A stretch of DNA of 64,000 nucleotides from Escherichia coli (GTDB lineage: Bacteria > Pseudomonadota > Gammaproteobacteria > Enterobacterales > Enterobacteriaceae), in NCBI RefSeq assembly GCF_003334405.1, contig NZ_QOWM01000018.1; one strand, written 5' to 3'. A model generated the notes under the pieces. That model did no database searches. It saw only the letters and a program-made list of their open reading frames with translations, and was not told where the DNA came from. A program made the translations under genes and the position numbers. This document shows, in pieces, positions 1-64,000 of this stretch. Positions within the stretch are counted from its first letter, which is position 1. Every line of letters starts with the position of its first letter.

Positions 1-15
1 GTACCGGATTGGCAC
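1..15 (-). repeat. shufflon sfx site, partial (cut by window edge), inverted orientation
   Basis: gtaccggattggcac is the reverse complement of the conserved arm GTGCCAATCCGG plus 3 bp of core seen in the other five sites. Confidence 0.6.
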
Positions 16-23
16 TGGCCTAC

Positions 24-42
24 GTGCCAATCCGGTACCTGG
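24..42 (+). repeat. shufflon sfx 19-bp site (arm GTGCCAATCCGG + core TACCTGG)
   Basis: exact 19-mer gtgccaatccggtacctgg; encodes CQSGTW in the frame that continues into the segment to its right. Confidence 0.75.
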
Positions 43-282
43 AAATCATCATCAGCGTCGATATGGACGAATATAAAAACATTTACGTTATATCCCAAAA
101 ACACACAGGTCTTAGGGAGGTTTAAACTGTGTATTAACACCTATCGTATTGACGGGCGTGAAATGGCAGAAACAGAAGTCGTTCCTATTGACATGCCTGA
201 CTCTAACGGCGAGATGACTTGGCAAGCCAAAAACTACACACAGTATTCGTCCTACTTTATGAAGATTACTTGCTTGAAATAG
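25..282 (+). CDS. pilV: PilV thin-pilus adhesin, alternative C-terminal exon (no own start codon; joined to pilV constant region by inversion)
   Basis: open frame runs from repeat-encoded CQSGTW (24-42) to TAG at 280-282; converges on the opposite-strand exon in the same segment. Confidence 0.5.
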   Translation, partial: CQSGTWKSSSASIWTNIKTFTLYPKNTQVLGRFKLCINTYRIDGREMAETEVVPIDMPDSNGEMTWQAKNYTQYSSYFMKITCLK

Positions 283-283
283 C

Positions 284-547
284 TTATTGGCAAAGGGCAT
301 ATACAGTTATTGAACCATTCTGATCTTCGGTTGTATCGCACGCAGCCGACCATGAGTTATTGGCTGATGGGAATGACCTGGTAAGCCATATGTAACCAGT
401 TCGTGAGGTGCATATTCCGCCGCCACCTGTAACACGTTTTCCAGTTGGACAGGTAGCTGTTGCTCCAGGAAAGCGCCAACCTGTGGCCTGTGCTGTAGCA
501 ATTTGAAGCTCACCAGATCCTACCTTTCTCCAGGTACCGGATTGGCA
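284..547 (-). CDS. pilV: PilV alternative C-terminal exon
   Basis: minus-strand frame from sfx 530-548 (CQSGTW) to stop at 284; Gly/Thr/Cys-rich tail. Confidence 0.5.
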   Translation of the reverse strand, partial: CQSGTWRKVGSGELQIATAQATGWRFPGATATCPTGKRVTGGGGICTSRTGYIWLTRSFPSANNSWSAACDTTEDQNGSITVYALCQ

Positions 548-548
548 C
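530..548 (-). repeat. shufflon sfx 19-bp site (core TACCTGG), inverted orientation
   Basis: ccaggtaccggattggcac = reverse complement of gtgccaatccggtacctgg. Confidence 0.75.
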
Positions 549-576
549 GTAGGCCAGCAGCGCCAGCAATTTAATC

Positions 577-876
577 TCAGTTCTGACACGCGACGACATA
601 ACTACATTTTCCGGTTAAATCAGCTCTAAATGTCCCTTTATGGAAATTGTATTCATCATAAAAACCACATTTAACAATTCGATTTGCATCATAAGTTGCA
701 ACTGATCCTGCAAAGTAATTCGGCTTCCAACCTTGAGGGTTTTCTGCATTGCTCACACTCCATGAGCACTGACTGGCAGAAAATCCTGTTGGCAGCGGTA
801 TTTGCTGACCATTTGCTATACGACCAGTTATCACCGTACTACCAGAATTGCTTTTACGCCAAGTACCGGATTGGCA
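577..876 (-). CDS. pilV: PilV alternative C-terminal exon (single exon in this segment)
   Basis: minus-strand frame from sfx 859-877 (CQSGTW) to stop at 577. Confidence 0.5.
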
Positions 877-877
877 C
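859..877 (-). repeat. shufflon sfx 19-bp site (core TACTTGG), inverted orientation
   Basis: ccaagtaccggattggcac; head-to-head with the site at 886-904, 8-bp spacer gtaggcca. Confidence 0.75.
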
Positions 878-885
878 GTAGGCCA

Positions 886-904
886 GTGCCAATCCGGTAC
901 CTGG
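886..904 (+). repeat. shufflon sfx 19-bp site (core TACCTGG)
   Basis: exact 19-mer gtgccaatccggtacctgg. Confidence 0.75.
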
Positions 905-1150
905 GGCGCACCTAAAATTCAATTCACAACGCAGACCTACAACATAGCTAAAAACACTCGTAATTTAAGGCTCGGGGTCCATGCATATTGCTCATGGACT
1001 TACCTGAATGGCTCACCCTTTGGTGGTTTTCAACAGGTATATTCCGACCAAAACAACGTTTGGTATGTGAGTAATTATGCTTGGGGAAATTATGAGTCTG
1101 GTGGGACCATATCAGTCACATGCCTCAATCTTCCTGGTGCTGGAGCTTAA
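887..1150 (+). CDS. pilV: PilV alternative C-terminal exon
   Basis: plus-strand frame from sfx 886-904 (CQSGTW) to stop at 1148-1150. Confidence 0.5.
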
Positions 1151-1377
1151 TTAAAGGGGCAACAGTAGGCATCGACATGTTCCTCATCAACACCATCACC
1201 AATACCGTACATGCGTGTTCCAGTCATAATGTATCCAGTCGGACATTGAATCGGCTTGTAATAGATCGAACCACCACTCTTACCGCCGATAAAGTGATTC
1301 ATTGCTACGGATGATTTGTACCAATTACATGCTGAGTAATTAATTTTATTACCCCCTGACCACCGACCGGATTGGCA
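1147..1377 (-). CDS. pilV: PilV alternative C-terminal exon
   Basis: minus-strand frame from sfx 1360-1378 (CQSGRW) to stop at 1147; converges on the 887-1150 exon. Confidence 0.5.
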
Positions 1378-1378
1378 C
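1360..1378 (-). repeat. shufflon sfx 19-bp site (core TCGGTGG), inverted orientation, adjacent to rci
   Basis: ccaccgaccggattggcac = reverse complement of gtgccaatccggtcggtgg. Confidence 0.7.
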
Positions 1379-1429
1379 GCTTGCAGAGAATGGTTGTTGG
1401 CATTATTTTTTGCCTCTTTTGAGGTTAGC

Positions 1430-2584
1430 ATGCCGTCTCCACGCATCCGTAAAATGTCCCTGTCGCGCGCACTGGATAAGTACCTGAAAACAGTTTCTGT
1501 TCACAAGAAAGGGCATCAACAGGAGTTTTACCGGAGCAATGTTATCAAGCGATATCCCATTGCCCTTCGGAATATGGACGAAATAACAACCGTTGATATT
1601 GCTACATACAGAGACGTTCGTTTAGCAGAAATCAACCCCCGAACGGGTAAAGCCATTACAGGTAATACTGTACGTCTTGAACTCGCCCTTCTGTCATCTC
1701 TGTTCAATATTGCTCGTGTTGAATGGGGAACCTGTCGTACTAACCCGGTTGAACTGGTTCGCAAGCCGAAAGTATCCTCCGGACGAGATCGCCGGCTAAC
1801 GTCTTCAGAAGAACGTCGCCTTTCTCGCTATTTCCGCGAAAAAAATCTGATGTTGTATGTCATTTTCCATCTTGCCCTTGAAACAGCCATGCGGCAGGGC
1901 GAAATACTGGCTTTACGTTGGGAGCACATTGATTTGCGTCACGGTGTGGCTCATTTACCTGAAACCAAAAACGGTCACTCACGGGATGTTCCTCTGTCCA
2001 GACGTGCCCGTAACTTTCTTCAGATGATGCCCGTTAATCTCCACGGCAATGTTTTTGATTACACCGCATCCGGCTTTAAAAATGCCTGGAGAATAGCCAC
2101 ACAACGACTTCGCATCGAGGACCTGCATTTTCACGATCTACGGCATGAAGCAATAAGCCGCTTCTTCGAACTGGGTAGCCTGAATGTAATGGAGATTGCT
2201 GCAATATCAGGACATCGTTCCATGAATATGCTGAAACGGTATACTCATCTTCGTGCATGGCAACTGGTCAGTAAGCTTGATGCCCGCCGGCGGCAGACAC
2301 AAAAAGTGGCAGCATGGTTTGTGCCGTATCCTGCCCATATCACGACCATCGATGAAGAAAATGGGCAGAAAGCGCATCGTATTGAGATCGGTGATTTTGA
2401 TAACCTTCACGTCACTGCCACAACGAAAGAGGAAGCAGTTCACCGCGCCAGTGAGGTTTTGTTGCGTACACTGGCCATTGCAGCACAGAAAGGCGAACGT
2501 GTCCCATCTCCCGGAGCGTTACCTGTTAACGACCCTGACTACATTATGATTTGCCCTCTGAACCCGGGCAGCGCCCCGCTGTAA
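1430..2584 (+). CDS. rci: shufflon-specific tyrosine recombinase Rci
   Basis: N-terminus [13 protein letters not shown], tyrosine-recombinase motifs ([17 protein letters not shown]), starts 52 bp after last sfx site; ATG 1430 (384 aa) preferred over upstream ATG 1394. Confidence 0.85.
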
Positions 2585-2734: not shown

Positions 2735-3559
2735 ATGAGACTGAATACGACCGGTATTGCGGCCCGAATGATGCTCTCGCTGGACAAAAAAGCAATCGGC
2801 GAAAAACTCATCAACGGTCGTCAGATAAACCCGACACCACTGCAGGTCCGTTACCCACAAGGGGTAAGAGAAGTTCTGGGGATAATGAGCGAACAATTAG
2901 CCATATCCACCGCTGATTTAACCCGAATCCTGCTTGAGGATGCTCTTCATAATATGTTTATGCCTGCGGATAACACCACAGGAAACATAATAAGCAGAAT
3001 TGAATACATCATGCTGTCGCATGATATAAATGCGCCATTACTGGCAACATTGCTGTCGCCATGGAATATCCGCTCCACGGTTATACAGGACCCGGCCAGA
3101 CTTGCAGACTATCTTTCAGCTGACGCTCTCGAACATCTTGCTGAATGTTTTAATCTCAATCCGGACTGGCTGAATGGCCATGAAAACTATCCGATAGCGT
3201 TGTCCGGTGAATGGCCAGATACTGCTGATAATTTCAGAATGCTTATTAATGATAGCAGCAACACTGAAGTTATTTTCTGGCATAGTTTCCCCTTCGCAGG
3301 AAACACGAAAAGAGAATATTGCGGGGTAATATTGAGACAGAAAAAAGAAATAAATGGCTCTGTAATATATCCAGCACTATCATTATCACCAACACTTCTG
3401 AACGATGAAAAAAGAAAATGGTTAACTGAATATACAACCAGGCAGAATACAACAATGTCTTTGCGACGTGTTACGTTGAGACCTGGCCTTGCCGGGAACC
3501 TTATTACAGGGCAAATACTACCTGTTAGCTTATTTAATACGTCTTTATTACCCTGGTAA
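2735..3559 (+). CDS. traE: conjugal transfer protein (first gene of tra operon)
   Basis: 274-aa ORF, GGAGG RBS 5 nt upstream; name from position relative to rci/sog (synteny inference). Confidence 0.6.
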   Translation: MRLNTTGIAARMMLSLDKKAIGEKLINGRQINPTPLQVRYPQGVREVLGIMSEQLAISTADLTRILLEDALHNMFMPADNTTGNIISRIEYIMLSHDINAPLLATLLSPWNIRSTVIQDPARLADYLSADALEHLAECFNLNPDWLNGHENYPIALSGEWPDTADNFRMLINDSSNTEVIFWHSFPFAGNTKREYCGVILRQKKEINGSVIYPALSLSPTLLNDEKRKWLTEYTTRQNTTMSLRRVTLRPGLAGNLITGQILPVSLFNTSLLPW

Positions 3560-3644
3560 ATACCAGATAGTACCAAAGTAAAAATTTACGGCACATCCGT
3601 GTCATAGCGTTGTTTTGTCTAAATTCTGATTAACAGGAAATTAA

Positions 3645-4847
3645 ATGATGAAGAAAAATCATATTACCCGCACCATCATTGCATCTGCTGTATTATTTTC
3701 CTTTAACGCTGCAGCAGCGACGTCATATTTTGAAGCACGTAACGATGCAATGGGTGGCACCGGAGTAGCATCTTCCCATTATGGTGTGGCACCTCTGGCA
3801 AACCCGGCTTTACTGACAAAGCACAACAGCAATGATGATTTCAGCCTTCTTCTGCCGTCTGTTGGGGCACAAGTTGCTGATCCTGATGATGTATCAAATA
3901 AAGCTGATGATGTTAAAGATGACTGGGATTTGTTTGATAGTGCTGTAGATAACCAGCATGGCGTACAACAGGCAGCAGCAAATCTTAAACATCGTCTGCA
4001 GGAATTCCGCAATATCAATGCAGATGCTCAGGTAGGTGTATCAGCTGTAGCAGCCATGGCAAATGACACTCTGCCGTTTGCCCTTATGGTCAAGTCTTAC
4101 GGAACTGTCAGCGTAAACGGAAAAGTAAACGATGCAGACCTGGATTATCTGGACAAAGTTGCCAATGGAACAATTACCGACGTCGATAAGAATGCCCTGA
4201 CCTCACGCGCATTCGGGCGTGCAGCTGTAATTACCGACGTCGGAATTTCATTTGCCAAAGAACTGGAAACGGCCGGACAAAAATGGTCTCTTGGCGTCAC
4301 ACCAAAATATCAGCGTGTGGACCTGTTTAACTACAACGTAACGGTTCGTGATTACGACAAAGACGATTTTGACGGTGACAAGTACCACAACACGAAAAAC
4401 GGATTCAACGCCGATATTGGTGCTTATACAGACCTGAATGACAACTGGACTGTCGGTCTTGTTGCCCAGAACATCATTCCACGCAGTATTGATACAAAAG
4501 TCGTCAATGGCTTTAAAGAAACCTTCAAAGTTCGTCCACAGGCAACCGCCGGTGTATCCTGGCATAATGACCTGTTTACCACTGCTCTTGACGTTGATCT
4601 GACTCCTGCCAGTGGCTTCACTTCTGACAGCAAACGTCAGTTTGCAAGTGTTGGTGCTGAATTTAACGCATGGAAATGGGCGCAATTGCGTGCCGGTTAT
4701 CGTCAGAACATGGCATCAAACTCCGGAAGCGCCTTCACCGCTGGCGTTGGTATCTCTCCATTTGACGTCGTACATATCGATGTTTCCGGCCTGGTAGGAA
4801 CTGACCACGATTACGGTGCAATGGCACAACTTCAGTTCACTTTCTGA
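3645..4847 (+). CDS. traF: conjugal transfer outer-membrane protein
   Basis: signal peptide, C-terminal aromatic terminus QLQFTF typical of beta-barrel OMPs; name by position. Confidence 0.6.
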   Translation: MMKKNHITRTIIASAVLFSFNAAAATSYFEARNDAMGGTGVASSHYGVAPLANPALLTKHNSNDDFSLLLPSVGAQVADPDDVSNKADDVKDDWDLFDSAVDNQHGVQQAAANLKHRLQEFRNINADAQVGVSAVAAMANDTLPFALMVKSYGTVSVNGKVNDADLDYLDKVANGTITDVDKNALTSRAFGRAAVITDVGISFAKELETAGQKWSLGVTPKYQRVDLFNYNVTVRDYDKDDFDGDKYHNTKNGFNADIGAYTDLNDNWTVGLVAQNIIPRSIDTKVVNGFKETFKVRPQATAGVSWHNDLFTTALDVDLTPASGFTSDSKRQFASVGAEFNAWKWAQLRAGYRQNMASNSGSAFTAGVGISPFDVVHIDVSGLVGTDHDYGAMAQLQFTF

Positions 4848-6344: not shown

Positions 6345-7159
6345 AAGCACTCACCTCTCTCATTTTGCCAGTAATACTGCTTACTGGTTGTTCTTCTTCC
6401 CCCACCATCTCGCCAGGTGGTGTCAATACGCCACCACCTGACATTAATGCATGGCTTAAACCACGAAGTGAAAAGCCGGATAGTCTGTCAGAAACCCGCT
6501 GGAAAATGCTGACCGACGCGGGTAAAACGCTTGGATTTCGTGGTGGCAAGGCTCAGCGTTCATGGGAGCTGATTCAGGCACTCAACGCCCGGGAAAGCAC
6601 ACTTAATGCCTTATACGATTTCCGGCCACTGATTAGCCCGGAAGGCTGGCTACCACCGGTTATTGATGAAGCACAGGACGTTGCTCATATCACGCCAGAT
6701 CAAATCCGGACCTCTTCCCGGGTCTGGACCATCATTCGCCCTGAACGCTTTGTCAGCAATCCACCGGGCTGGCGTGACTGGCTTCTCCGGGGGCTTTCAA
6801 CAACAGCCACTCCGGGTACAGAAGGCAGCGTCGTTCCAGAAGACAGCGTGCAACGAAAAGTGTGGGAAACCGCATTACGGCAGGGATGGCAGGAAGGAAG
6901 ACAAAACGCCGACCTGACGCTTGAAGCCAACCAGAAAACCCTCACCCGTGATTACCGGGGCATGATGCTGTACTCACTTCTCTGGCGTCAGGGCATGATC
7001 ACCCGTCCGGATGTTTCTGATCAAATGCAAACCGTTACAGGTGACGGGAAAAAACTGGTCACTGGAGATCGTGTTCGTCGCCTTAAAAATCATGCGGAAT
7101 TCAATCTTCAGAAATCTCACTGGCGTCCGCTTATAGGCACTGAAGGAGGCTCCCGATGA
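6341..7159 (+). CDS. traI: conjugal transfer lipoprotein (DotC-like position)
   Basis: lipobox LTGC; overlaps traH stop; name by position. Confidence 0.6.
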   Translation: MKALTSLILPVILLTGCSSSPTISPGGVNTPPPDINAWLKPRSEKPDSLSETRWKMLTDAGKTLGFRGGKAQRSWELIQALNARESTLNALYDFRPLISPEGWLPPVIDEAQDVAHITPDQIRTSSRVWTIIRPERFVSNPPGWRDWLLRGLSTTATPGTEGSVVPEDSVQRKVWETALRQGWQEGRQNADLTLEANQKTLTRDYRGMMLYSLLWRQGMITRPDVSDQMQTVTGDGKKLVTGDRVRRLKNHAEFNLQKSHWRPLIGTEGGSR

Positions 7160-8304
7160 ATACTCCTGATGAGTTTGGTCTTTTTCCGTTTCAGCGTTTC
7201 ACTGCAGATGAACTACGGCATTTCTTTGTCTGGTGTGCCGCACATAAAGTCAGTGATGTGGATCTGACCGGTGGGTCGCCCGTATCTGTCAGTCGCTTTG
7301 GCCGACGGGTGCGTTGTTCCAGTGCAACGTTACCAACCACACTCATGTCCTCCCTGATTGATGAACTGTTCGGTCGGGAAGTCATTCCCCGCGTTCTGGC
7401 AGGCAATCCGGTTGACAGGACGATACAGATTAACGGGGATGCATCCGGGCGCTATGGTCTTAAACGCGGAGAACGCATCCGGTTACGCTCTCACCTCATT
7501 CAGGGCACATCTGGTGCGGAGGAGAAAGCAATCTCAATAACCATGCGTGTCATCCCGACAGAAATACCGGACATTCTCTCCATGAATATTGAACCAGACC
7601 TGCTTGAAGCAATGGTCTGCAAAAGCGGTCTGGGATTTGTATGTGGTGAAACCGGGTCAGGAAAATCAACGCTGTGTTCAGCACTGTACCGTTACATTAT
7701 GGACAATTTCCCCGACGCCAAAATCGTGACATATGAAGACCCGGTGGAATATATCCTGGGAAATGAAAACGATCTGCTCCCACCGCATCAGGCAGAAATC
7801 GGGCGTGATGTGGTCAGTTTTGCTGCCGGACTGCGTTCTGCTGTACGACGTAATCCCGAAATTATCGGTGTTGGTGAGATCAGGGATAACGAAACCGCCG
7901 ACGCAGCGGTACAGGCAGGCAACACCGGGCATTACTGCCTGAGCACCATGCATACGAAATCTCCTGGTGAAACGCTGGCACGTCTTCTTGGGCTGTTTCC
8001 CCCTGTCATCAGGGATTCGATGGCCTGGGCTGTCCTGTCACTGTTGCAGTTCATTCTGGTTCAGGTTCTGGTCAGAACAAATGACGGTGGTCGTAAAGCC
8101 GTCCGGGAATATATCGTCATTAACGATGAGCTTCGCGACAATCTTTCCGGAATGCCACATGCAGAGTGGGGGCATCACATTGATGCCATAATCCGGCAGG
8201 AGAAGCGCCGTATCCGGGACCAGATTCTGGAAATGTATATCCGGAATGAAGTTGACCGAAGAGAAGCGATTCTTTTTATCCCACCAGGGGAGTTACGGTC
8301 ATGA
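7156..8304 (+). CDS. traJ: type IV secretion ATPase (PilT/DotB-like)
   Basis: Walker A GETGSGKST; overlapping start with traI. Confidence 0.7.
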   Translation: MNTPDEFGLFPFQRFTADELRHFFVWCAAHKVSDVDLTGGSPVSVSRFGRRVRCSSATLPTTLMSSLIDELFGREVIPRVLAGNPVDRTIQINGDASGRYGLKRGERIRLRSHLIQGTSGAEEKAISITMRVIPTEIPDILSMNIEPDLLEAMVCKSGLGFVCGETGSGKSTLCSALYRYIMDNFPDAKIVTYEDPVEYILGNENDLLPPHQAEIGRDVVSFAAGLRSAVRRNPEIIGVGEIRDNETADAAVQAGNTGHYCLSTMHTKSPGETLARLLGLFPPVIRDSMAWAVLSLLQFILVQVLVRTNDGGRKAVREYIVINDELRDNLSGMPHAEWGHHIDAIIRQEKRRIRDQILEMYIRNEVDRREAILFIPPGELRS

Positions 8305-8591
8305 AAAGAGAAGGTTTCTGGCGATATGCAACACCGCCAGTCAACATCCAGGGCGTACCTCTGCCGTTCACCATGATTTATCTGTTTATATGCCCCTTTC
8401 CCTCCAAAACAACCTTCTGGATTTGCACCGGCATCATTTTATTTTTCGTTATTCTCGACCGTTCAGGCTGGACTGTCAGGACTATCTGTACACGCATTTT
8501 CAGCATTCTGAGAGGGGCCATCGCCTCCGGTCGTCCATGGTGGTATCGCCACCATACGGAATCACCACGAGACTGGACTGGCCTCGATTAA
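8301..8591 (+). CDS. traK: small integral membrane transfer protein (IcmT-like size)
   Basis: 96 aa, two hydrophobic helices; name by position. Confidence 0.55.
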   Translation: MKREGFWRYATPPVNIQGVPLPFTMIYLFICPFPSKTTFWICTGIILFFVILDRSGWTVRTICTRIFSILRGAIASGRPWWYRHHTESPRDWTGLD

Positions 8592-9246: not shown

Positions 9247-12200
9247 ATGCCGTCTGTATCCCGCTACCGCACCTGGCTTGCCGTGCCTGCAGATGAAATA
9301 GAAGATCTCAAAAAAGCACATCCCCCGATGAACGGGCACACGCCCGTCATCTGGGACAAGGAGCACAAACTCTGGTTCGCCCGCCCGGGGGCAGACCTGT
9401 CCAGGCTGGACCGCTGGCTGCCCCGGCCACAGGACGTCTCCATGAACGGCAGTGATCCGGTCACCGAGTTTGCCCAGGTTCTGGAGAATGCCGGACTGGT
9501 TCTGAAAGAACTGCCGGTCATGGACGGGAAAATCCACCGTGTCCCGACCGCCGATGACAAAAAAGGACAAAAAAGTGGCGCATATCGCGGCTTCCTGGAC
9601 GGCAGACCTGCCGGCTGGTACAGGGATTATCGCAGCGCGGATGATTCGCCGATCACCTGGACCTTCTCCGGCGGAGAACAGACAGATCCCCGCGCAAGAC
9701 TCCACCTGAAAGCGCATTCAATGCAACGCAGGGAGGACGCGGAGCGGGAACTGAAAGCACAGTACAACCGACAGGCCGCGTATGCCCGCCGCTATGTCAA
9801 CAAATGGCCGCAGGCCACAGCACATGAATACCTGACCCGGAAAGGCATTCAGGCTGCACCGGGGGTGCGGGTAAACAACAAAAATGAACTGGTTATTCCC
9901 TTCAGTAACCGTAACGGCGCGATACGCTCTTACCAGCGTATTCCGGTCACCGGGGGGAAAGATGCCCGCATCCTGATAGATTCGGAGAAAACCGGTAACT
10001 GGTTTGCGCTGGGCACACCGCGCAACGGTCAGCCGGTACTGTTTGCCGAGGGCTATGCCACTGCGGCCTCCCTGCACGAAGCCACGGGCCTTCCGGTACT
10101 GATGACGGTGGATGGAGGCAACATGATTGCCGTTGCCGAAAATGCCCGGCAAAAGTGGACGCAAAGCCCCTTTATCTTCTGTGCCGACAACGATCATGCA
10201 ATCCGGGTTAACAAAGGTATCGTCAGTGCAACAAAAGCCGCAGAACTGACAGGAGGAACGGTCATCTTTCCTGCGTTCACCGATGCCGAAAAAGCGCAGG
10301 GACTGACCGATTTCAATGACCTGGACGCCAGCCGGGGACGGGCCGCTTTTCAGCATGTCATCAACGCCCAGTTAGAACATATCGGGGTTTCCACCCCCAA
10401 CAGTAACACCCCGGAAATCCGGGAGGCACTGGTGATCGGCAACCTCGTTTTTACACCGGTCCACACTGAGGAAAAAACCATGACTCCGACAGAATATCCT
10501 GAAACATCACCCGATACAGGGCACAGCCATGACCAGGGACCTTCTCTGCCGTCCGCCACGCAGCAGGAACAACCAGCTGCTTCCAGCAGTAACATTGCTG
10601 ATGAAACACAGTCATTTACCAGTCACGCCACTGAAAATAACGGCAAAGATGAGCGGCACGCTGATAACGTTCAGGCGCAAACGGAAAGCTCTGTAGTTCA
10701 GGACTCCCCTGCAGAATCACCGGCGTCCCCGGAAAGTACAACGGCGTCTGCCCCTGATGAACCCGCTCATCCGGCGGAACCTCCGGAAAAAGTTGTCTCG
10801 GTGGCCACAGATAAAGACTGGCGTGAATTTGAAGCCGAACTGTCACAACCGGAAAAAAACGAGTCACAACAGGAATCCGGCACTTCACCTGAAATACCGG
10901 CCCCTGCTGCCGCCCCCGCATCCCCTGAAGACAGTCCCTCATCTGAAACCATGAATGAATCAGCCGAGCCATCACCTTCCCCTGATGCAGTCAAAGAGGA
11001 AATGACCGTGATGACGGAGCCTGATGACAAACAAAGCACCGGAATATCCCCGGATACTCCCCGGGAAGAGGCGGTCAGCCATGTAACTGAAGACATTCCC
11101 CTTCAGCCAGAACCGTTCCTTCCTGAGTCAGATGGCCCTGAAGAATACGAAGACTACAGCGCATATCAGGAGCTGATGAACAATGAAAATCCTGAGCATC
11201 TGCAGGAAAACAGTGATATGCCGTCGCAACCGGACACAGGCCACGTTCAGGCAGATGAGTCAGAACTTCAGACCACAACAGATACTGCAGAACCGGCTGT
11301 CCGGGATGAACCCACTCCGCAGCAACCTGTTCAGAGCACATCACCTTCTGATAATACTTCTTCGTTTCTCGACAAAGCGCGTGGCCTTTTTACGCGTAAA
11401 AAAACGGATTCACAGGCGCATGAGAACAGTGATCCCACGCCCTCACAGGAAACCACGACGACCACACCGACACCTGACAGTATTGTCTACGCCCCGGAAC
11501 GTTCTGATGCACAGATATCGCTCAACATAGACGAAATTCTTAAAGAGCTTGACTGGGAAAAACGAGCAGACAGAACCGTCCTGTACAAACTGGATGGCAA
11601 ACCTGCCTTCATTGACCGGGTAAACCGGCTGGAAATGGTCAACGGTGCCAGCAATGACGATCGCAGCGTTCTGGCCGCACTTGCTGTGGCCACCAAATTT
11701 TATGGGGGCGTCATAGAGCTGACGGGCAGTGATGCCTTTAAGCAAAAAGCAATGCAGTTGATTATCGAGCACAACATCGATGTCCGGATGAAATTGCCAG
11801 ATCAACGGGCTGAACTAGAAAAATTACGCAAGGAAATGGCTGTCAGTAAGGATGCTGTTGTCACCCATCAGCCAACACCGGAACTTAACCGGAATATCCC
11901 TGAACAACCGGCTGTCCCTGACCCCGTTCAGGAAAAAGAAGCCACACAATCCCCGGCGTCCCCTGCTGCCCCTGAAGCATCAACCGTCAGCACCGCTCCT
12001 GCATCATCACCGGCTGAACCAGGCAAAACGGCAGATGCAGCACCAGGTGAAGAACCTCCAGGAAAACTTCGCCCGGGAGAGAGCGTGACTGCCGTACTGC
12101 ACAATTTTGGTCGTGCTGAATATGCACCCGGCAAAGGAGAAAGTTTCTTTGTTGAGCTTAAAAACCGCAGTGGCAGCAAACTCTACTGGGGGGAACAACT

Positions 12201-61053: not shown

Positions 61054-61311
61054 ATGGATGAAGAAAGGGGGTTTTCACTCAGTTATGAACAACTGACCCG
61101 GTTTGCGGAAAAACGCATCCGGGAATGCAATCTGGACAGCCAGGGCGCGATTTATCTCTGCGAGTCAGCCAAAGCCGGAGCCGTGCTGATCTTCTGGCAT
61201 GAACTGGCCATAAATGGCTATGCCTCAATGAATGCCATAAAGAGACAAGAGATCATTGACGCCGACTTTCAGCGCCTCAGAAACCTCATCTGGCCGGAGG
61301 ATGACAGGTAA
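61054..61311 (+). CDS. hypothetical protein
   Basis: 85 aa, preceded by overlapping 19-codon uORF 61002-61061. Confidence 0.45.
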   Translation: MDEERGFSLSYEQLTRFAEKRIRECNLDSQGAIYLCESAKAGAVLIFWHELAINGYASMNAIKRQEIIDADFQRLRNLIWPEDDR

Positions 61312-61901
61312 TGACCCAGAGCCGCCGACCGTCGCCACTGCAGCGGAGAGTGCTGATTGTGCTGGCTGCCCTTGATGAAAAACGGCCGGGCCCCGTGCTG
61401 ACGCGGGACCTGGAACGGGTGCTGGAGCGAAGCGGGGAAGCCCCGGTCTACGGGCCAAACCTGCGCGCCTCCTGCCGTCGTCTGGAGGATGCCGGCTGGC
61501 TGCGTACCCTGCGCGCCCCGAACCTGCAGCTGGCAGTGGAGCTGACGGACGCCGGCCGGGCCGTGGCACAGCCTCTGCTGCTGGCAGAACAGGACCGCAT
61601 CCGGGCAGAACAGCGTGCGGCAGAAGTCGTCGTACTGCCGCTGGTCCCGGCAGCAGGTCTGCCCGCAGGCGGCACTTCTGCCACTGATCTGGCGGTGGAG
61701 CTGAACGGCATGACGTATCAGGCCTGCCGTGGGGATTTTGTGGTGCGTCTCGACGGCAGCACCTGTCTGCAGTTATGGAATAAAGAAGGCAGAGTGGTAC
61801 GCCTGGAGGGCGATCCGCTGGAAGTGGCGCAGTGGCTGCAGGCCTGTCACGATGCCGGAATGGAGGTTCGTGTACAGGTTAATGAAAGCGTCACCCCGTA
61901 A
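61311..61901 (+). CDS. hypothetical winged-helix-like protein in GC-rich island
   Basis: 196 aa, TAATG overlap with upstream ORF; much higher GC than flanks. Confidence 0.5.
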   Translation: MTQSRRPSPLQRRVLIVLAALDEKRPGPVLTRDLERVLERSGEAPVYGPNLRASCRRLEDAGWLRTLRAPNLQLAVELTDAGRAVAQPLLLAEQDRIRAEQRAAEVVVLPLVPAAGLPAGGTSATDLAVELNGMTYQACRGDFVVRLDGSTCLQLWNKEGRVVRLEGDPLEVAQWLQACHDAGMEVRVQVNESVTP

Positions 61902-61966
61902 AAACATGCCAGCACGGTTTACACGTTATCCCATGGTGGCAGCCGGTTAACTTTCCTGCGCCACCA

Positions 61967-62284
61967 GTGGAAAGAGGCCATGCACAGTTAAGTCTTGATG
62001 TTAATCTGCGGCTGTTTTTTGCAATGGCAATCATTGTCTGTGGTTACGGCTATGTAATTATTTATATTTTTATAAAAAATACGCTCGTCTATATTTTAAC
62101 GTTGCCTGGGCTTACATGTCTCAGTTCTTTATTTTCTTTCATGGCATTTAAAGATAACAATATGTGGGTTGATTCTCCTGATTTGACGTTATCAGTAATA
62201 ACAGGCTCTTTTGCGGCTACAGTTATCTTTTATATGTTCTATTTTTTGAGTTATTCCTTTTATCGGATGGGGACGGATGAATAG
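61967..62284 (+). CDS. hypothetical small membrane protein
   Basis: 105 aa, hydrophobic, AT-rich. Confidence 0.35.
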   Translation: MERGHAQLSLDVNLRLFFAMAIIVCGYGYVIIYIFIKNTLVYILTLPGLTCLSSLFSFMAFKDNNMWVDSPDLTLSVITGSFAATVIFYMFYFLSYSFYRMGTDE

Positions 62285-62505
62285 AAAGGCCGATGACCTG
62301 CATTTAAGTAAGCGGCTAACCGTATTGATATTTACTGAGAGCTCAGTTCAACTCTCCAGCGATAACAGATCGCGTTCCCTTCCATGCCGCGCCAGCAGCA
62401 TGGAAGGCGGCATATTATCAACCATGAAAAATCACCTGGCGGAAAATTTACTAATTTATGGATTGTGATATTATTAAAGAGTAGAACAAGCCAGCTGAGG
62501 TATTT

Positions 62506-63099
62506 ATGGGAAAAAATCAGGAAGAAAGGAAGCCCCCCATCATTGTGGTGAAAAAACGTCGTACTTTTTCGCCACCTTCCTTATCCGAAAAAACAGATAT
62601 TATCGCACCTGCATTTACTGAACAGGCGGCAGAATTCCCCCCCGTCGGAATAAATTCATCTGCCGTCGAAAAACATATCCCCGAAGCACCAGCCCGGAAG
62701 AAGAAAAAGAAAAGACATCGTTTCCCACGTCCCGCCCACTGGACCCGTGAGTATACTCACGAGTGCGTGGAAAAAATAAAGACCCTGTTTCCTCATCTTC
62801 GTGCTGAAGGCGGTGGATTTATTCCCCTGAAAATTGGCATCAGCAATGATATTTCGGCATTTCTGGCAGAAAACCCGGATACAGAACTGTCCATGGACGA
62901 ATGGTTCTGTGCAGTGTCCTGCATCACCTCCCGCCGCGTATATCTGCAGCGGACCTCTGTCGCCGGCGTCCCTCGTTATGGGCTGGATGGTCATCCCGAT
63001 GGGCAGGTCTCAGAAACTGAAGCACAGAGTGCTGTTCAAAGACTGGCGATAATAGAACAACGGTGGCTCAGGATGAAGGAACGGCAGACTGAGCAATAA
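62506..63099 (+). CDS. ProQ/FinO-domain RNA-binding protein (FopA/FinO-like)
   Basis: 197 aa; Lys/Arg-rich N-terminus then FinO-like pattern (TLFPHLRAEGGGFIPLKIGISNDISAFLAEN, RRVYLQRTSVAGVPRYGLDGHPDG). Confidence 0.55.
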   Translation: MGKNQEERKPPIIVVKKRRTFSPPSLSEKTDIIAPAFTEQAAEFPPVGINSSAVEKHIPEAPARKKKKKRHRFPRPAHWTREYTHECVEKIKTLFPHLRAEGGGFIPLKIGISNDISAFLAENPDTELSMDEWFCAVSCITSRRVYLQRTSVAGVPRYGLDGHPDGQVSETEAQSAVQRLAIIEQRWLRMKERQTEQ

Positions 63100-63380
63100 A
63101 CATTTCAGATAACATCATGACATTGTGTATCAGAGTCTGCTTACAGACTCATGGATGCCACCAAAGGCTCATCAGATGTAAGGCAGAAGCGACGTAACTG
63201 CCTTTTGAAAGGAAAAAAGCGACCGCAAGGATGCAATGGATATCTGCCGCATACTGAAATAAAGTAACAAAAAAATCACCACAATCACGGGGGCTTCCTT
63301 CCTGTACTCAGGCCATACCCCCCGCCCGGATAAATTTCTCAATCAACAATACAATAAAACTGTGGATAATATCATCATGA

Positions 63381-63989
63381 TTAACGCATAATTACCCGTG
63401 ATTCTTTCCTGGTAACGTAAGTACAGTTATCCGGAACCTCCTCCATAATAAAAGACATGGCTCCAATTTTTACATTACTGCCTATTTTTACGTTAAGCCC
63501 GATAATACACGTATGGGCACCTACATCGACATTATCACCAATAACGATATAATTCTCTCTGCTGTCAGATTCCTTTTCGCCAATGGTCGTATTCTGCCGT
63601 ATAATCACATTCTCACCGATCTTTACATTACCGTGAATGACGACACCTGAATGGTGGGGCAGCACGAGTCCTTTACCAATCTGCGCCCCCAGGCCAATAT
63701 CACATCCATACTTTGCCATAAGCGCATTTTTTATCTTGATCGCACATTTTCGTTGTTTTTTATTCCCCGATATATACATTTCATTAGCCAGACGCCACCA
63801 CAGAAGAAAACCTCTCTGCCTCTGCATACCGTTCCTGATAAGCCGGTGAAAAACAAACTTATCCCGCATGATAACTTCTGCTTTCCAGTATTCCAGAAGA
63901 TGACGTTTTTTTCCTGATAATAAAAATGTACCAATATGGATATAAGAAATAGGATTTTTTATCAGCATACGCAAATTTTCAGAAAACAA
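63381..63989 (-). CDS. hexapeptide-repeat acyl/acetyltransferase (left-handed beta-helix)
   Basis: repeated [LIV]G.N..IG hexapeptides (VVIHGNVKIGENVII, IVIGDNVDVGAHTCIIGLNVKIGSNVKIG); AT-rich; possible internal start at 63869. Confidence 0.6.
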   Translation of the reverse strand: MFSENLRMLIKNPISYIHIGTFLLSGKKRHLLEYWKAEVIMRDKFVFHRLIRNGMQRQRGFLLWWRLANEMYISGNKKQRKCAIKIKNALMAKYGCDIGLGAQIGKGLVLPHHSGVVIHGNVKIGENVIIRQNTTIGEKESDSRENYIVIGDNVDVGAHTCIIGLNVKIGSNVKIGAMSFIMEEVPDNCTYVTRKESRVIMR

Positions 63990-64000
63990 TGAATACAGAT

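Follow-up and report, generated by a model that had tools for sequence, protein, structure and literature searches.

A predicted CysE-like acetyltransferase of phage family PHROG 2154 in a variable slot of an IncK/B/O/Z-type plasmid, with a possible role in surface-glycan modification

The window analysed here, a stretch of 64,000 nucleotides from an Escherichia coli contig (NZ_QOWM01000018.1), belongs to an I-complex conjugative plasmid with shufflon/rci, traY, trbC and nikB, and the plasmid is of the IncK/B/O/Z type. Its right end holds two convergent genes, encoding a ProQ/FinO-domain protein and an acetyltransferase, the region between their 3' ends, and a module that extends slightly past the window (Table 1). 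Many IncK/B/O/Z-type plasmids of this kind carry antibiotic-resistance genes.

Table 1. Features at the right end of the window, with the evidence for each.
Feature	Coordinates	Strand	Evidence
ProQ/FinO-domain protein, 197 aa; yafB/FopA-like gene of I-complex plasmids, conserved flank	62506..63099	+	NCBIfam, annotation of relatives
Convergent intergenic region, 281 bp, 3' ends of both genes	63100..63380	.	Fold z-scores, Rfam, terminator scan
Lineage-specific single-gene module, no homology to IncI1 backbone	63135..64000, continuing ~20 bp past window end	.	blastn against IncI1 plasmid
Acetyltransferase CDS, 195 aa, complete	63381..63968	-	ORF list, translation, RefSeq relatives, profile matches, family alignment, dN/dS

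The longest acetyltransferase ORF (63381..63989, minus strand) starts at a TTG and encodes 202 aa; RefSeq relatives use the in-frame ATG at 63968 instead, which gives 195 aa (MLIKNP...). The initial annotation had placed the first codons within 12 bp of the window end, which holds for the TTG start at 11 bp; the ATG lies 32 bp away, and the CDS is complete with either. The promoter region is located past the window end, and scans for consensus promoters and terminators gave nothing convincing for this gene. It was also correctly described as AT-rich, with a GC content and a GC3 of 0.40 each against 0.513 for the window; no more than 2.6% of 600-bp segments reach this AT content. It is, however, not the sole AT-rich stretch: the regions at 26-28 kb and 56-58 kb have GC contents of 0.397 and 0.426, and the final 4 kb form a GC mosaic that ranges from 0.39 to 0.67.

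The yafB/FopA-like neighbour matches the ProQ/FinO models of NCBIfam below cutoff and is labelled 'ProQ/FINO family protein' or yafB in relatives. Between the two genes a non-coding stretch of 280 bp had been noted as preceding the acetyltransferase. The stretch itself stands, one base pair longer and with a mechanical ORF of 56 aa as the only reading frame, but its position does not: since the genes are convergent, it lies downstream of both rather than ahead of the acetyltransferase. On the plus strand it contains a weak hairpin (~63179-63203), and on the minus strand a U7 run comes after a G-rich hairpin (~63265-63325). Hairpins on both strands were no better than those of shuffled sequence (fold z-scores -0.3 to -2.3), a consensus terminator scan of the region found none, and an Rfam scan of 61900-64000 at E<=1 detected no RNA family.

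Homology to an IncI1 plasmid ends 36 bp past the yafB stop (window position 63134/63135, determined by blastn of a relative against IncI1) and does not resume until a 77-bp junction shortly beyond the window end; in second-tier relatives homology stops at 63134 or 63087. The intervening module of ~885 bp fills a slot of variable content, with yafB on one side and the yacAB-repA region on the other. IncI1 plasmids of the R64/ColIb-P9 type (yafB - yafA - ... - yacAB - repZ) have a slot at the same position, between the yafB 3' end and the 77-bp junction, but fill it with yafA, which encodes a membrane protein on the other strand, and a small ORF, neither of which shows sequence similarity to the acetyltransferase module. 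Beyond the acetyltransferase, close relatives have an ORF for a 98-aa membrane protein, the toxin-antitoxin pair yacB/yacA and repA. A functional pairing of the acetyltransferase with this divergent 98-aa ORF was rejected, since CP027324 and p4809.66 have the former without the latter. A search around the module for IS elements, integron-type features or attC-like sites and flanking terminal inverted or direct repeats yielded only short matches at chance level, and the closest relatives have no transposase adjoining the acetyltransferase gene. A transposon or integron cassette was rejected, as flanking repeats are lacking and the segments on either side of the module are backbone that is conserved with IncI1. 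Recombination between these conserved flanks seems to be how the module is swapped. On this plasmid the acetyltransferase gene adjoins no glycan-synthesis, pilus-adhesin or tail-fibre gene.

The gene is found in 181 plasmid records, compared with 1457 for the yafB/FopA-like gene, and in 170 of 5426 complete E. coli genomes, where 171 of 172 places are plasmid-borne. The initial annotation had regarded it as cargo, a view to be dropped if the gene were conserved at this position in all related backbones. Such conservation was found in the closest lineage only, where the 22 nearest relatives of the left flank all have it at this position; it does not extend to the I-complex as a whole, IncI1 having yafA and another ORF there. 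Hence it is an accessory gene that is not universal to the backbone, and we have high confidence in its status as an accessory module. An IncK2/Z plasmid has a second allele, with 82.7% nucleotide identity, in the same neighbourhood close to rep. The dN/dS ratio is 0.07 in comparison with a 98% identical relative and 0.05 in comparison with the IncK2/Z allele (dS 1.2), which shows the gene is under strong purifying selection. The acetyltransferase is not a recent pick-up, because it is present in all of the closest relatives, has a divergent allele in the same neighbourhood and displays these low ratios. Most of the 181 records show an uninterrupted reading frame. Copies in three sampled plasmids are frameshifted by 1-bp deletions, at different sites and with no simple tract slippage, and may be pseudogenes or sequencing errors. 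Truncated remnants of the gene occur in IncF ColV plasmids, beside IS100.

The identification as a hexapeptide acyltransferase is well founded, with matches to Pfam Hexapep (E=3.5e-5, plus weaker repeat matches), to EpsC-, CysE- and WcaB-type models of NCBIfam and to the CysE beta-helix in the PDB. Residues 20-193 match positions 5-179 of the 185 positions of PHROG 2154 (E=3.3e-63), a phage protein family with its function listed as unknown, and two prophage homologues match this profile equally well. Members of the family occur on plasmids, both of the I-complex and of other kinds, in P2-like and P1-like prophages, and at a few chromosomal loci. A PDB search with the family profile gave 146 matches at E<=0.01; the best 60 of these 146 are all beta-helix acyltransferases, and the nearest solved relatives are CysE structures (E=4e-31). 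In the family alignment, which shows the motif RQNTTIG, His105 (encoded at 63654-63656) is nearly invariant and position 90 (63699-63701) is Asp or Glu; these predicted catalytic residues are kept across the family down to ~40% identity. An AlphaFold2 monomer model made with a 25-sequence alignment has a mean pLDDT of 69, with five confident N-terminal helices and a beta-helix at ~50. According to this model a reduced N-terminal helical domain is present. Comparison of the low-confidence model with the PDB by Foldseek gave only weak CysE matches, with TM scores of 0.3-0.4. Judged by its profile matches, the protein is a CysE-like left-handed beta-helix (hexapeptide) acetyltransferase of the uncharacterised family PHROG 2154. 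Phage homologues have been assigned an unknown role or merely 'fitness' (PMC9603915; PMC6456863). The papers that broader literature searches turned up only list them, with no function given, and the main text of the Rousset 2022 and iLund4u hotspot papers does not mention the family.

With CysE (EC 2.3.1.30) the plasmid protein shares a left-handed beta-helix catalytic domain that follows helices, and the Asp/His dyad. In HMMER alignments with 6wye and 4n69, Asp90 and His105 align with the catalytic Asp and His of CysE (Asp143/His158 in E. coli numbering). The residues of CysE that bind serine and cysteine, Asp157, Arg192 and His193 (the DRHP motif), have Pro104, Asn139 and Tyr140 as their counterparts. 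This segment is variable among family members, but D-H and K-R-H-P are retained in P0110, the EpsC-type outgroup. The plasmid protein is also ~80-100 residues shorter at its N-terminus: Pfam gives no match to the SATase_N domain, and the PDB matches begin at chain residues ~110-140, corresponding to residue ~50 of the query. At the other end it stops ~10 residues after the last beta-helix coil and so has no CysE C-terminal (CysK-binding) tail. Finally, cysE is a housekeeping gene, whereas the PHROG 2154 gene rides mobile elements.

RefSeq relatives with 97-99% identity are labelled 'serine acetyltransferase', and some records label the plasmid gene 'colanic acid biosynthesis acetyltransferase'. 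The protein misses the curated CysE cutoffs by far (TIGR01172, 76.2 against 210.65 bits; PRK11132, 59 against 397). Among NCBIfam models the WcaB/EpsC branch, which also consists of small cytoplasmic hexapeptide acetyltransferases, gives the best matches (EpsC 3e-24, WcaB 6e-16), but these too are below the cutoffs (EpsC, 85.6 against 150; WcaB, 58.3 against 194.65 and 57.9 against 196), and the plasmid gene lies outside any polysaccharide cluster, its neighbours being the ProQ/FinO gene, the small ORF, yacAB and repA. Because neither the curated thresholds nor the serine-binding residues are matched, 'serine acetyltransferase' is probably a wrong label, and both labels are probably wrong on several hundred plasmid and phage genes.

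The surroundings of homologues in other elements give hints of function. The analysis covered 80 IMG/VR loci with 43 distinct sequences, in classes of 44 to 61% identity. In 69 of the 80 loci a gene for tail-fibre assembly is found no more than 500 bp from the homologue, usually convergent and at a distance of 22-90 bp; many of these viral loci are near-identical prophages, so that 69/80 overstates the number of independent cases. Tail-fibre-adjacent homologues are also found in a P2-like prophage, the P1-like phage JL22 and a Buttiauxella prophage, and in some temperate phages a homologue follows the integrase at the att end. A homologue with 49% identity belongs to an LPS-core cluster of Pseudomonas, where it shares an overlap with a GT2 gene and is accompanied by waaG-like, Kdo-kinase, carbamoyltransferase and msbA-like genes. 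One homologue adjoins an OafA-type acyltransferase and another ugd/arn genes; several distant ones are stand-alone with uninformative neighbours. Prophage acetyltransferases have been linked to capsule type in Klebsiella, with prophage-driven sugar modification suggested (2026 study, PMC13123978).

As the likeliest of the readings considered, though at somewhat less than even odds, we tentatively propose that the acetyltransferase is a 'moron' gene with a surface glycan as its target. The enzyme, assumed to be a cytoplasmic trimer as are other members of the fold, would O-acetylate a hydroxyl acceptor, with acetyl-CoA as the donor and the conserved Asp90/His105 dyad for catalysis. Since the serine-holding residues of CysE are replaced, this acceptor would not be L-serine; the likeliest candidate would be a sugar of an envelope glycan precursor, that is of LPS core, O-antigen, capsule or ECA. 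The carrying element might thereby alter the cell-surface receptor for phage tail fibres, and possibly for IncI-type PilV adhesins, with lysogenic-conversion or exclusion-type behaviour as the outcome. The recurrent tail-fibre placement and the homologue in the LPS-core operon make for a cheap and testable hypothesis, namely that plasmids as well as prophages edit the receptor; if true, this would bear on phage susceptibility, conjugation host range and the serotyping of carrier strains. Weighing against the proposal, the gene has no glycan-synthesis, pilus-adhesin or tail-fibre neighbour on this plasmid, several distant homologues stand alone, and in P2-like phages the closeness to tail-fibre genes may be nothing more than the effect of a hotspot for accessory genes in general, defence systems included. 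The initial annotation had suggested the modification of surface polysaccharides by a cassette; for the single gene we infer that such a role is plausible.

As a functional analogy we propose NeuO. This hexapeptide O-acetyltransferase, which prophage CUS-3 encodes, modifies the K1 capsule of E. coli; it is a phage-borne cytoplasmic beta-helix acetyltransferase, its gene lies next to that for the tail receptor-binding protein, and it alters a surface glycan. The two are, however, not detectably close in sequence, and no polysialic-acid acetyltransferase is among the best 60 of the 146 PDB profile matches. NeuO-like phase variation was rejected, as there are no tandem repeats in 63000-64000 and no 5' contingency repeats, and the frameshifts elsewhere are not changes in tract length. 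Phage O-antigen acetylases of the Sf6 Oac type follow the same genomic logic, as do other morons near tail genes that modify receptors or act in exclusion, for example Z/fun of P2: in temperate phages, a non-essential gene is placed at the att end or by the genes for tail fibres. Oac-type O-antigen acetylases are integral-membrane acyltransferase-3 proteins, thus different in fold from PHROG 2154, and Z/fun has no sequence relationship to the family.

PilV adhesins of I-complex plasmids bind LPS. A bolder version of the proposal, which we consider doubtful, is that PHROG 2154 could be a receptor-editing tool shared by mobile elements with LPS-binding adhesins, be these P1- and P2-like tail fibres, which are invertible or variable, or the shufflon PilV. 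O-acetylation of an LPS-core or O-antigen sugar on the carrying cell would then block re-infection or self-mating; alternatively, it would shield the host from competing LPS-dependent phages and plasmids. Were this true, it would be the plasmid equivalent of lysogenic conversion and a new layer of surface exclusion for IncK/B/O/Z plasmids.

A rival reading is anti-phage defence or superinfection exclusion, in which an intracellular phage or host component would be acetylated during infection. Homologues are placed in accessory and defence hotspots already known as such: beside P2-like tail genes, at an att end, and near toxin-antitoxin genes in the maintenance regions of plasmids. Defence systems are abundant in the hotspots of P2. 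We nevertheless regard defence as unlikely. None of the 5027 models of PADLOC-DB v2 matches the plasmid protein or two prophage homologues, no partner or sensor gene is conserved alongside, and the homologue within the LPS-core operon suggests a part in biosynthesis. Acetyltransferases are not mentioned by Rousset et al. 2022 in their main text.

Surface-glycan O-acetylation also has to be weighed against O-acetylation of small molecules. The enzyme would then be a counterpart of LacA, Maa or NodL that modifies xenobiotics, metabolites or free sugars, with detoxification or a metabolic benefit as the gain. The family profile does match galactoside and maltose O-acetyltransferases (E=1e-16 to 1e-13), and in most contexts the gene is stand-alone, without pathway partners. 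Yet CysE-type proteins match far better than LacA/Maa (4e-31 against 1e-16), no xenobiotic acetyltransferase (Vat, CatB) is among the best 60 of 146 PDB matches, and the recurrent tail-fibre placement would be left unexplained, which renders this reading improbable.

That the database label is right after all is still harder to accept. The protein would then be a short serine O-acetyltransferase that supplies O-acetylserine for more cysteine synthesis or for CysB signalling in the host, and indeed more than 150 records carry the label, the closest solved structures are all CysE and the catalytic Asp and His are retained. The shortfall in score against TIGR01172, PRK11132 and EpsC, the lack of both SATase_N and the C-terminal tail, and the Pro, Asn and Tyr at the serine-binding positions argue in the opposite direction.

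A further reading is decay, in which the gene would be an AT-rich leftover from a phage and a functionless passenger in plasmids; the three frameshifted copies, the IncF ColV remnants by IS100 and antisense promoter-like sites inside the gene would fit. It is a very improbable account given the intact frame in most records, the dN/dS of 0.05-0.07, even at a dS of 1.2, and the catalytic residues conserved to ~40% identity.

The initial annotation had envisaged that a larger cassette, for polysaccharide modification or resistance, begins with the acetyltransferase and runs past the window, as the AT-richness and edge position of the gene might suggest and as CP027324, where IS3/IS91 elements, a DMT transporter and a GNAT acetyltransferase follow further on, might seem to support; this has next to no probability and is already refuted for the sequenced relatives, since the closest of these continue with the small membrane ORF, yacAB and repA rather than any such cassette, the lineage-specific block ends ~20 bp past the window, and the extras of CP027324 start after the 77-bp junction, are IS-associated and are absent from other relatives. 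For antibiotic resistance as the role of the gene, nothing was found that points to it.

As things stand this is a routine accessory gene in a well-sequenced plasmid group, and its direct importance is small. The slot by the replication region of I-complex plasmids is recombination-prone and separates IncK/B/O/Z-type lineages from IncI1, a difference that could aid plasmid typing and evolutionary reconstruction.

The AT-rich acetyltransferase gene at the end of the window forms an accessory module by itself, is maintained by selection and belongs to an uncharacterised family that mobile elements carry, within a known enzyme superfamily. The initial annotation had placed an AT-rich hexapeptide-repeat acyltransferase at the window edge, and this was borne out: Pfam detects hexapeptide repeats alone, and GC is 0.40 (GC3 0.40), whereas the window as a whole has 0.513. 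Just 2.6% of its 600-bp segments are as AT-rich, comparable AT-richness occurs in two further stretches, and the final 4 kb form a composition mosaic (GC 0.39 to 0.67). An in-frame ATG at 63968, the start in RefSeq relatives, yields 195 aa (MLIKNPISY...); with TTG or ATG start the CDS lies entirely inside the window and just the promoter region is cut off. The reported non-coding stretch of about 280 bp exists, but since the acetyltransferase and ProQ/FinO genes are convergent it holds the 3' ends of both. In this gap no Rfam match and no consensus terminator were found, and hairpins fold no better than shuffled sequence.

The nearest public records, at 96-98% identity, are conjugative E. coli plasmids (IncI-gamma/K1 or IncK2/Z, MOBP, MPF_I), whose typing and mobility genes identify the window as an I-complex plasmid of the IncK/B/O/Z type. 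Other window genes include traY/dotA, trbC, a MobP relaxase and umuC-like genes. The window begins within a shufflon, between whose repeats lie short pilV-tail-like ORFs (six copies were reached in 0 of 100 shuffles), and the plasmid probably makes variable PilV adhesins.

Coordinates of the features in the window and in related sequences
Feature	Sequence	Position	Strand	Remarks
Shufflon	window	3-1378	both	six exact copies of the 13-mer GTGCCAATCCGGT, both orientations
Tyrosine recombinase gene	window	1394-2584		396 aa, taken as rci; after shufflon
ORF (ydeA in IncI1)	window	61311-61901	+	196 aa, GC ~0.65, between AT-rich segments (GC 0.39-0.44)
ORF	window	61967-62284	+	105 aa, AT-rich, hydrophobic stretches; just upstream of ProQ/FinO gene
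ProQ/FinO-domain gene	window	62506-63099	+	197 aa (NCBIfam)
Gap	window	63100-63380		281 bp
Acetyltransferase ORF	window	63381-63989	-	202 aa from TTG start (ORF listing)
Sigma-70-like site	window	63526-63553	+	TCGACA-16-TATAAT, 11/12 matches
Sigma-70-like site	window	63577-63605	+	TCGCCA-17-TATAAT, 10/12 matches
77-bp segment	L002, close relative plasmid	9621-9695		93.5% identical to L003
77-bp segment	L003, pS74 (IncI1-type)	8421-8497		93.5% identical to L002
Homologue, 56% identical	L005-L008, E. coli chromosomes	~7660-8573		prophage-remnant end, between glsA/ybaT and copA
Diverged allele with ProQ/FinO gene	L011, p4809.66 (IncK2/Z)	3153-4454		allele 103 bp upstream of second-type ProQ/FinO gene
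Remnant copy	L012, pAPEC-O2-ColV	5001-5324		residues 1-108, then IS100
Homologue, 49% identical	L016/L017, metagenome contigs	7001-7570		overlaps GT2 glycosyltransferase stop codon

Along its whole length the acetyltransferase fits the phage protein family PHROG 2154 (E=3.3e-63). Homologues of 44-68% identity occur between tail gene U and a tail-fibre assembly gene in P2-like prophages, at the att-proximal end after the integrase in P2-like phages, in P1-like phage-plasmids (JL22, for example) past the cin invertase gene with a tail-fibre assembly gene on either side, beside a tail-fibre gene in a Buttiauxella prophage, and in plasmid-like maintenance regions with resolvase and toxin-antitoxin genes. 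Many E. coli chromosomes carry one directly ahead of copA, where a prophage remnant ends with tail-fibre genes, a hok/gef-type toxin gene and then the homologue; this exact protein is indexed in 594 blocks of the collection, which makes this a common chromosomal locus. A tail-fibre assembly gene lies at most 500 bp away, mostly convergent and across a gap of 22-90 bp, in 69 of the 80 IMG/VR loci, which represent 43 distinct protein sequences in several identity classes and, many being near-identical prophages, fewer independent cases. A more distant relative, named Ectopseudomonas mendocina in NCBI, sits in a Pseudomonas LPS-core cluster together with GT4, four Kdo-kinase-like genes, a carbamoyltransferase and an msbA-like ABC transporter (GC 0.42 versus 0.54 for the locus). 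Among other distant chromosomal relatives one adjoins an OafA-type acyltransferase, one ugd/arn genes and one an integrase at an island end, and two have uninformative neighbours. Every family member examined has a lower GC than its surroundings (0.34-0.44 versus 0.46-0.54), so the AT-richness of the window gene is a family trait.

The reading we tentatively favour is that the enzyme would be an acetyl-CoA-dependent O-acetyltransferase with a sugar of an envelope glycan precursor as acceptor, and that acetylation would alter the receptor surface that phages, and perhaps PilV adhesins too, encounter. A testable lead comes from the association with tail-fibre genes and with LPS. In a 2026 study, putative prophage acetyltransferases ranked with the best predictors of capsule type in Klebsiella, and prophage-driven sugar modification was proposed (PMC13123978). 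[quoted passage not shown] Our literature search turned up no functional study of either the plasmid gene or its PHROG 2154 family. Intracellular defence or exclusion, to which the location of the gene in hotspots would point, seems an unlikely role; the PADLOC defence models gave no match to the protein.

From sequence comparison we conclude that the protein probably works like a beta-helix O-acetyltransferase. That it acetylates a small molecule instead of a glycan sugar is a rather improbable variant. The best NCBIfam matches of the protein, EpsC (score 85.6, cutoff 150), CysE (76.2 and 59, cutoffs 210.65 and 397) and WcaB (~58, cutoff ~195), are all well under the curated cutoffs. A true serine acetyltransferase might be suspected from the nearest solved structures: each is a CysE (E=8.5e-17 when searched with the sequence alone, 4e-31 with the profile of the family), and the matches take in the beta-helix together with the final helices of the N-terminal domain. 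The roles of Asp143, His158, Asp157, Arg192 and His193 are known from the E. coli and H. influenzae CysE structures. By HMMER alignment Asp90 and the nearly invariant His105 correspond to catalytic Asp143 and His158, but the positions of Asp157, Arg192 and His193 are taken by Pro104, Asn139 and Tyr140 and vary within the family, whose own motif is RQNTTIG. The C-terminal tail of CysE is absent, as is the greater part of its N-terminal domain. The replaced residues, the missing parts and the scores below cutoff thus make serine acetyltransferase identity very unlikely. Hundreds of public records already contain the gene, under an annotation that is probably wrong. An AlphaFold model was confident for the five N-terminal helices alone and poor for the beta-helix.

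The gene could also be a decaying passenger. Single-base deletions at different sites, two close to the GGAAAAAAAC tract of codons 19-21 and the third in the GGG stretch at codon 35, cause frameshifts in three of 40 sampled copies, from E. albertii and E. coli plasmids, and these could be either real pseudogenes or homopolymer sequencing errors. Decay is nonetheless highly improbable: comparison with a relative at 98% identity gives dN/dS 0.07, that with the IncK2/Z allele 0.05 (at dS 1.2), and catalytic-type residues are kept across a family alignment reaching ~40% identity, which argues for a functional protein.

By megablast the gene occurs in 181 plasmid records versus 1457 with the yafB-type gene, and among complete E. 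coli genomes in 170 of 5426, on plasmids in 171 of 172 places. Of the records matching the final 3.4 kb of the window, the best 22 all run on through the gene, but matches of the next tier (~90-94% identity) stop exactly at 63134 or 63087, and IncI1 has yafA. The term cargo therefore suits it in part: this accessory gene is dispensable, confined to its lineage and placed in a variable slot, yet within that lineage it is stably inherited. The p4809.66 allele (87% amino-acid, 82.7% nucleotide identity) again has the rep region on one side and a ProQ/FinO gene on the other, with non-homologous flanks, a Phd/RelE pair upstream and a co-directional ProQ/FinO paralogue, only 38% identical to that of the window, downstream; the two genes are thus neighbours in two unrelated arrangements. 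The same Phd/RelE pair precedes the remnant copies in IncF ColV/ColBM virulence plasmids, with which ~129 plasmid records at 80-90% identity were grouped; these remnants are a trace of past recombination between I-complex and IncF plasmids.

In the closest relatives ydfA/ydeA-like genes, a small ORF and the ProQ/FinO gene (FopA-type, named yafB in annotated IncI1 records) come first, and then the acetyltransferase in opposite orientation, a membrane ORF of 98 aa, the yacB/yacA toxin-antitoxin pair and repA. The suggestion that a polysaccharide-modification or resistance cassette continues beyond the window can be dismissed as scarcely credible, as nothing like one follows in these relatives. 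Homology between L002 and pS74 stops at window position 63134, 36 bp past the yafB stop, and restarts at the 77-bp junction ~20 bp outside the window end. The interval comprises ~885 bp with the acetyltransferase as sole gene in L002 and ~782 bp with yafA and a small ORF in pS74. Neither IS elements nor repeats, inverted or direct, were found at the borders of the block, and with breakpoints in conserved flanks it looks like an alternative module swapped by recombination.

The 77-bp segment, ~20-95 bp outside the window, is shared by IncK-type and IncI1-type plasmids and joins the alternative gene modules; homology to CP027324 is likewise lost at its far end. Read on the strand of the acetyltransferase, it would provide a possible -35 element (TTGCGC, 17 nt, TAAAAT), and it may be a recombination joint or a common regulatory element. 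Upstream of the ProQ/FinO gene, the GC-rich 196-aa ORF, for which NCBIfam gave nothing at E<=1e-10, is ~95% conserved with IncI1 plasmids; the 105-aa ORF is annotated in relatives as a 91-aa hypothetical protein. The two strong sigma-70-like sites inside the acetyltransferase CDS are antisense to it, the total of such sites in this region does not exceed shuffle expectation, and they may be promoters of the spurious intragenic kind that acquired AT-rich genes typically contain.
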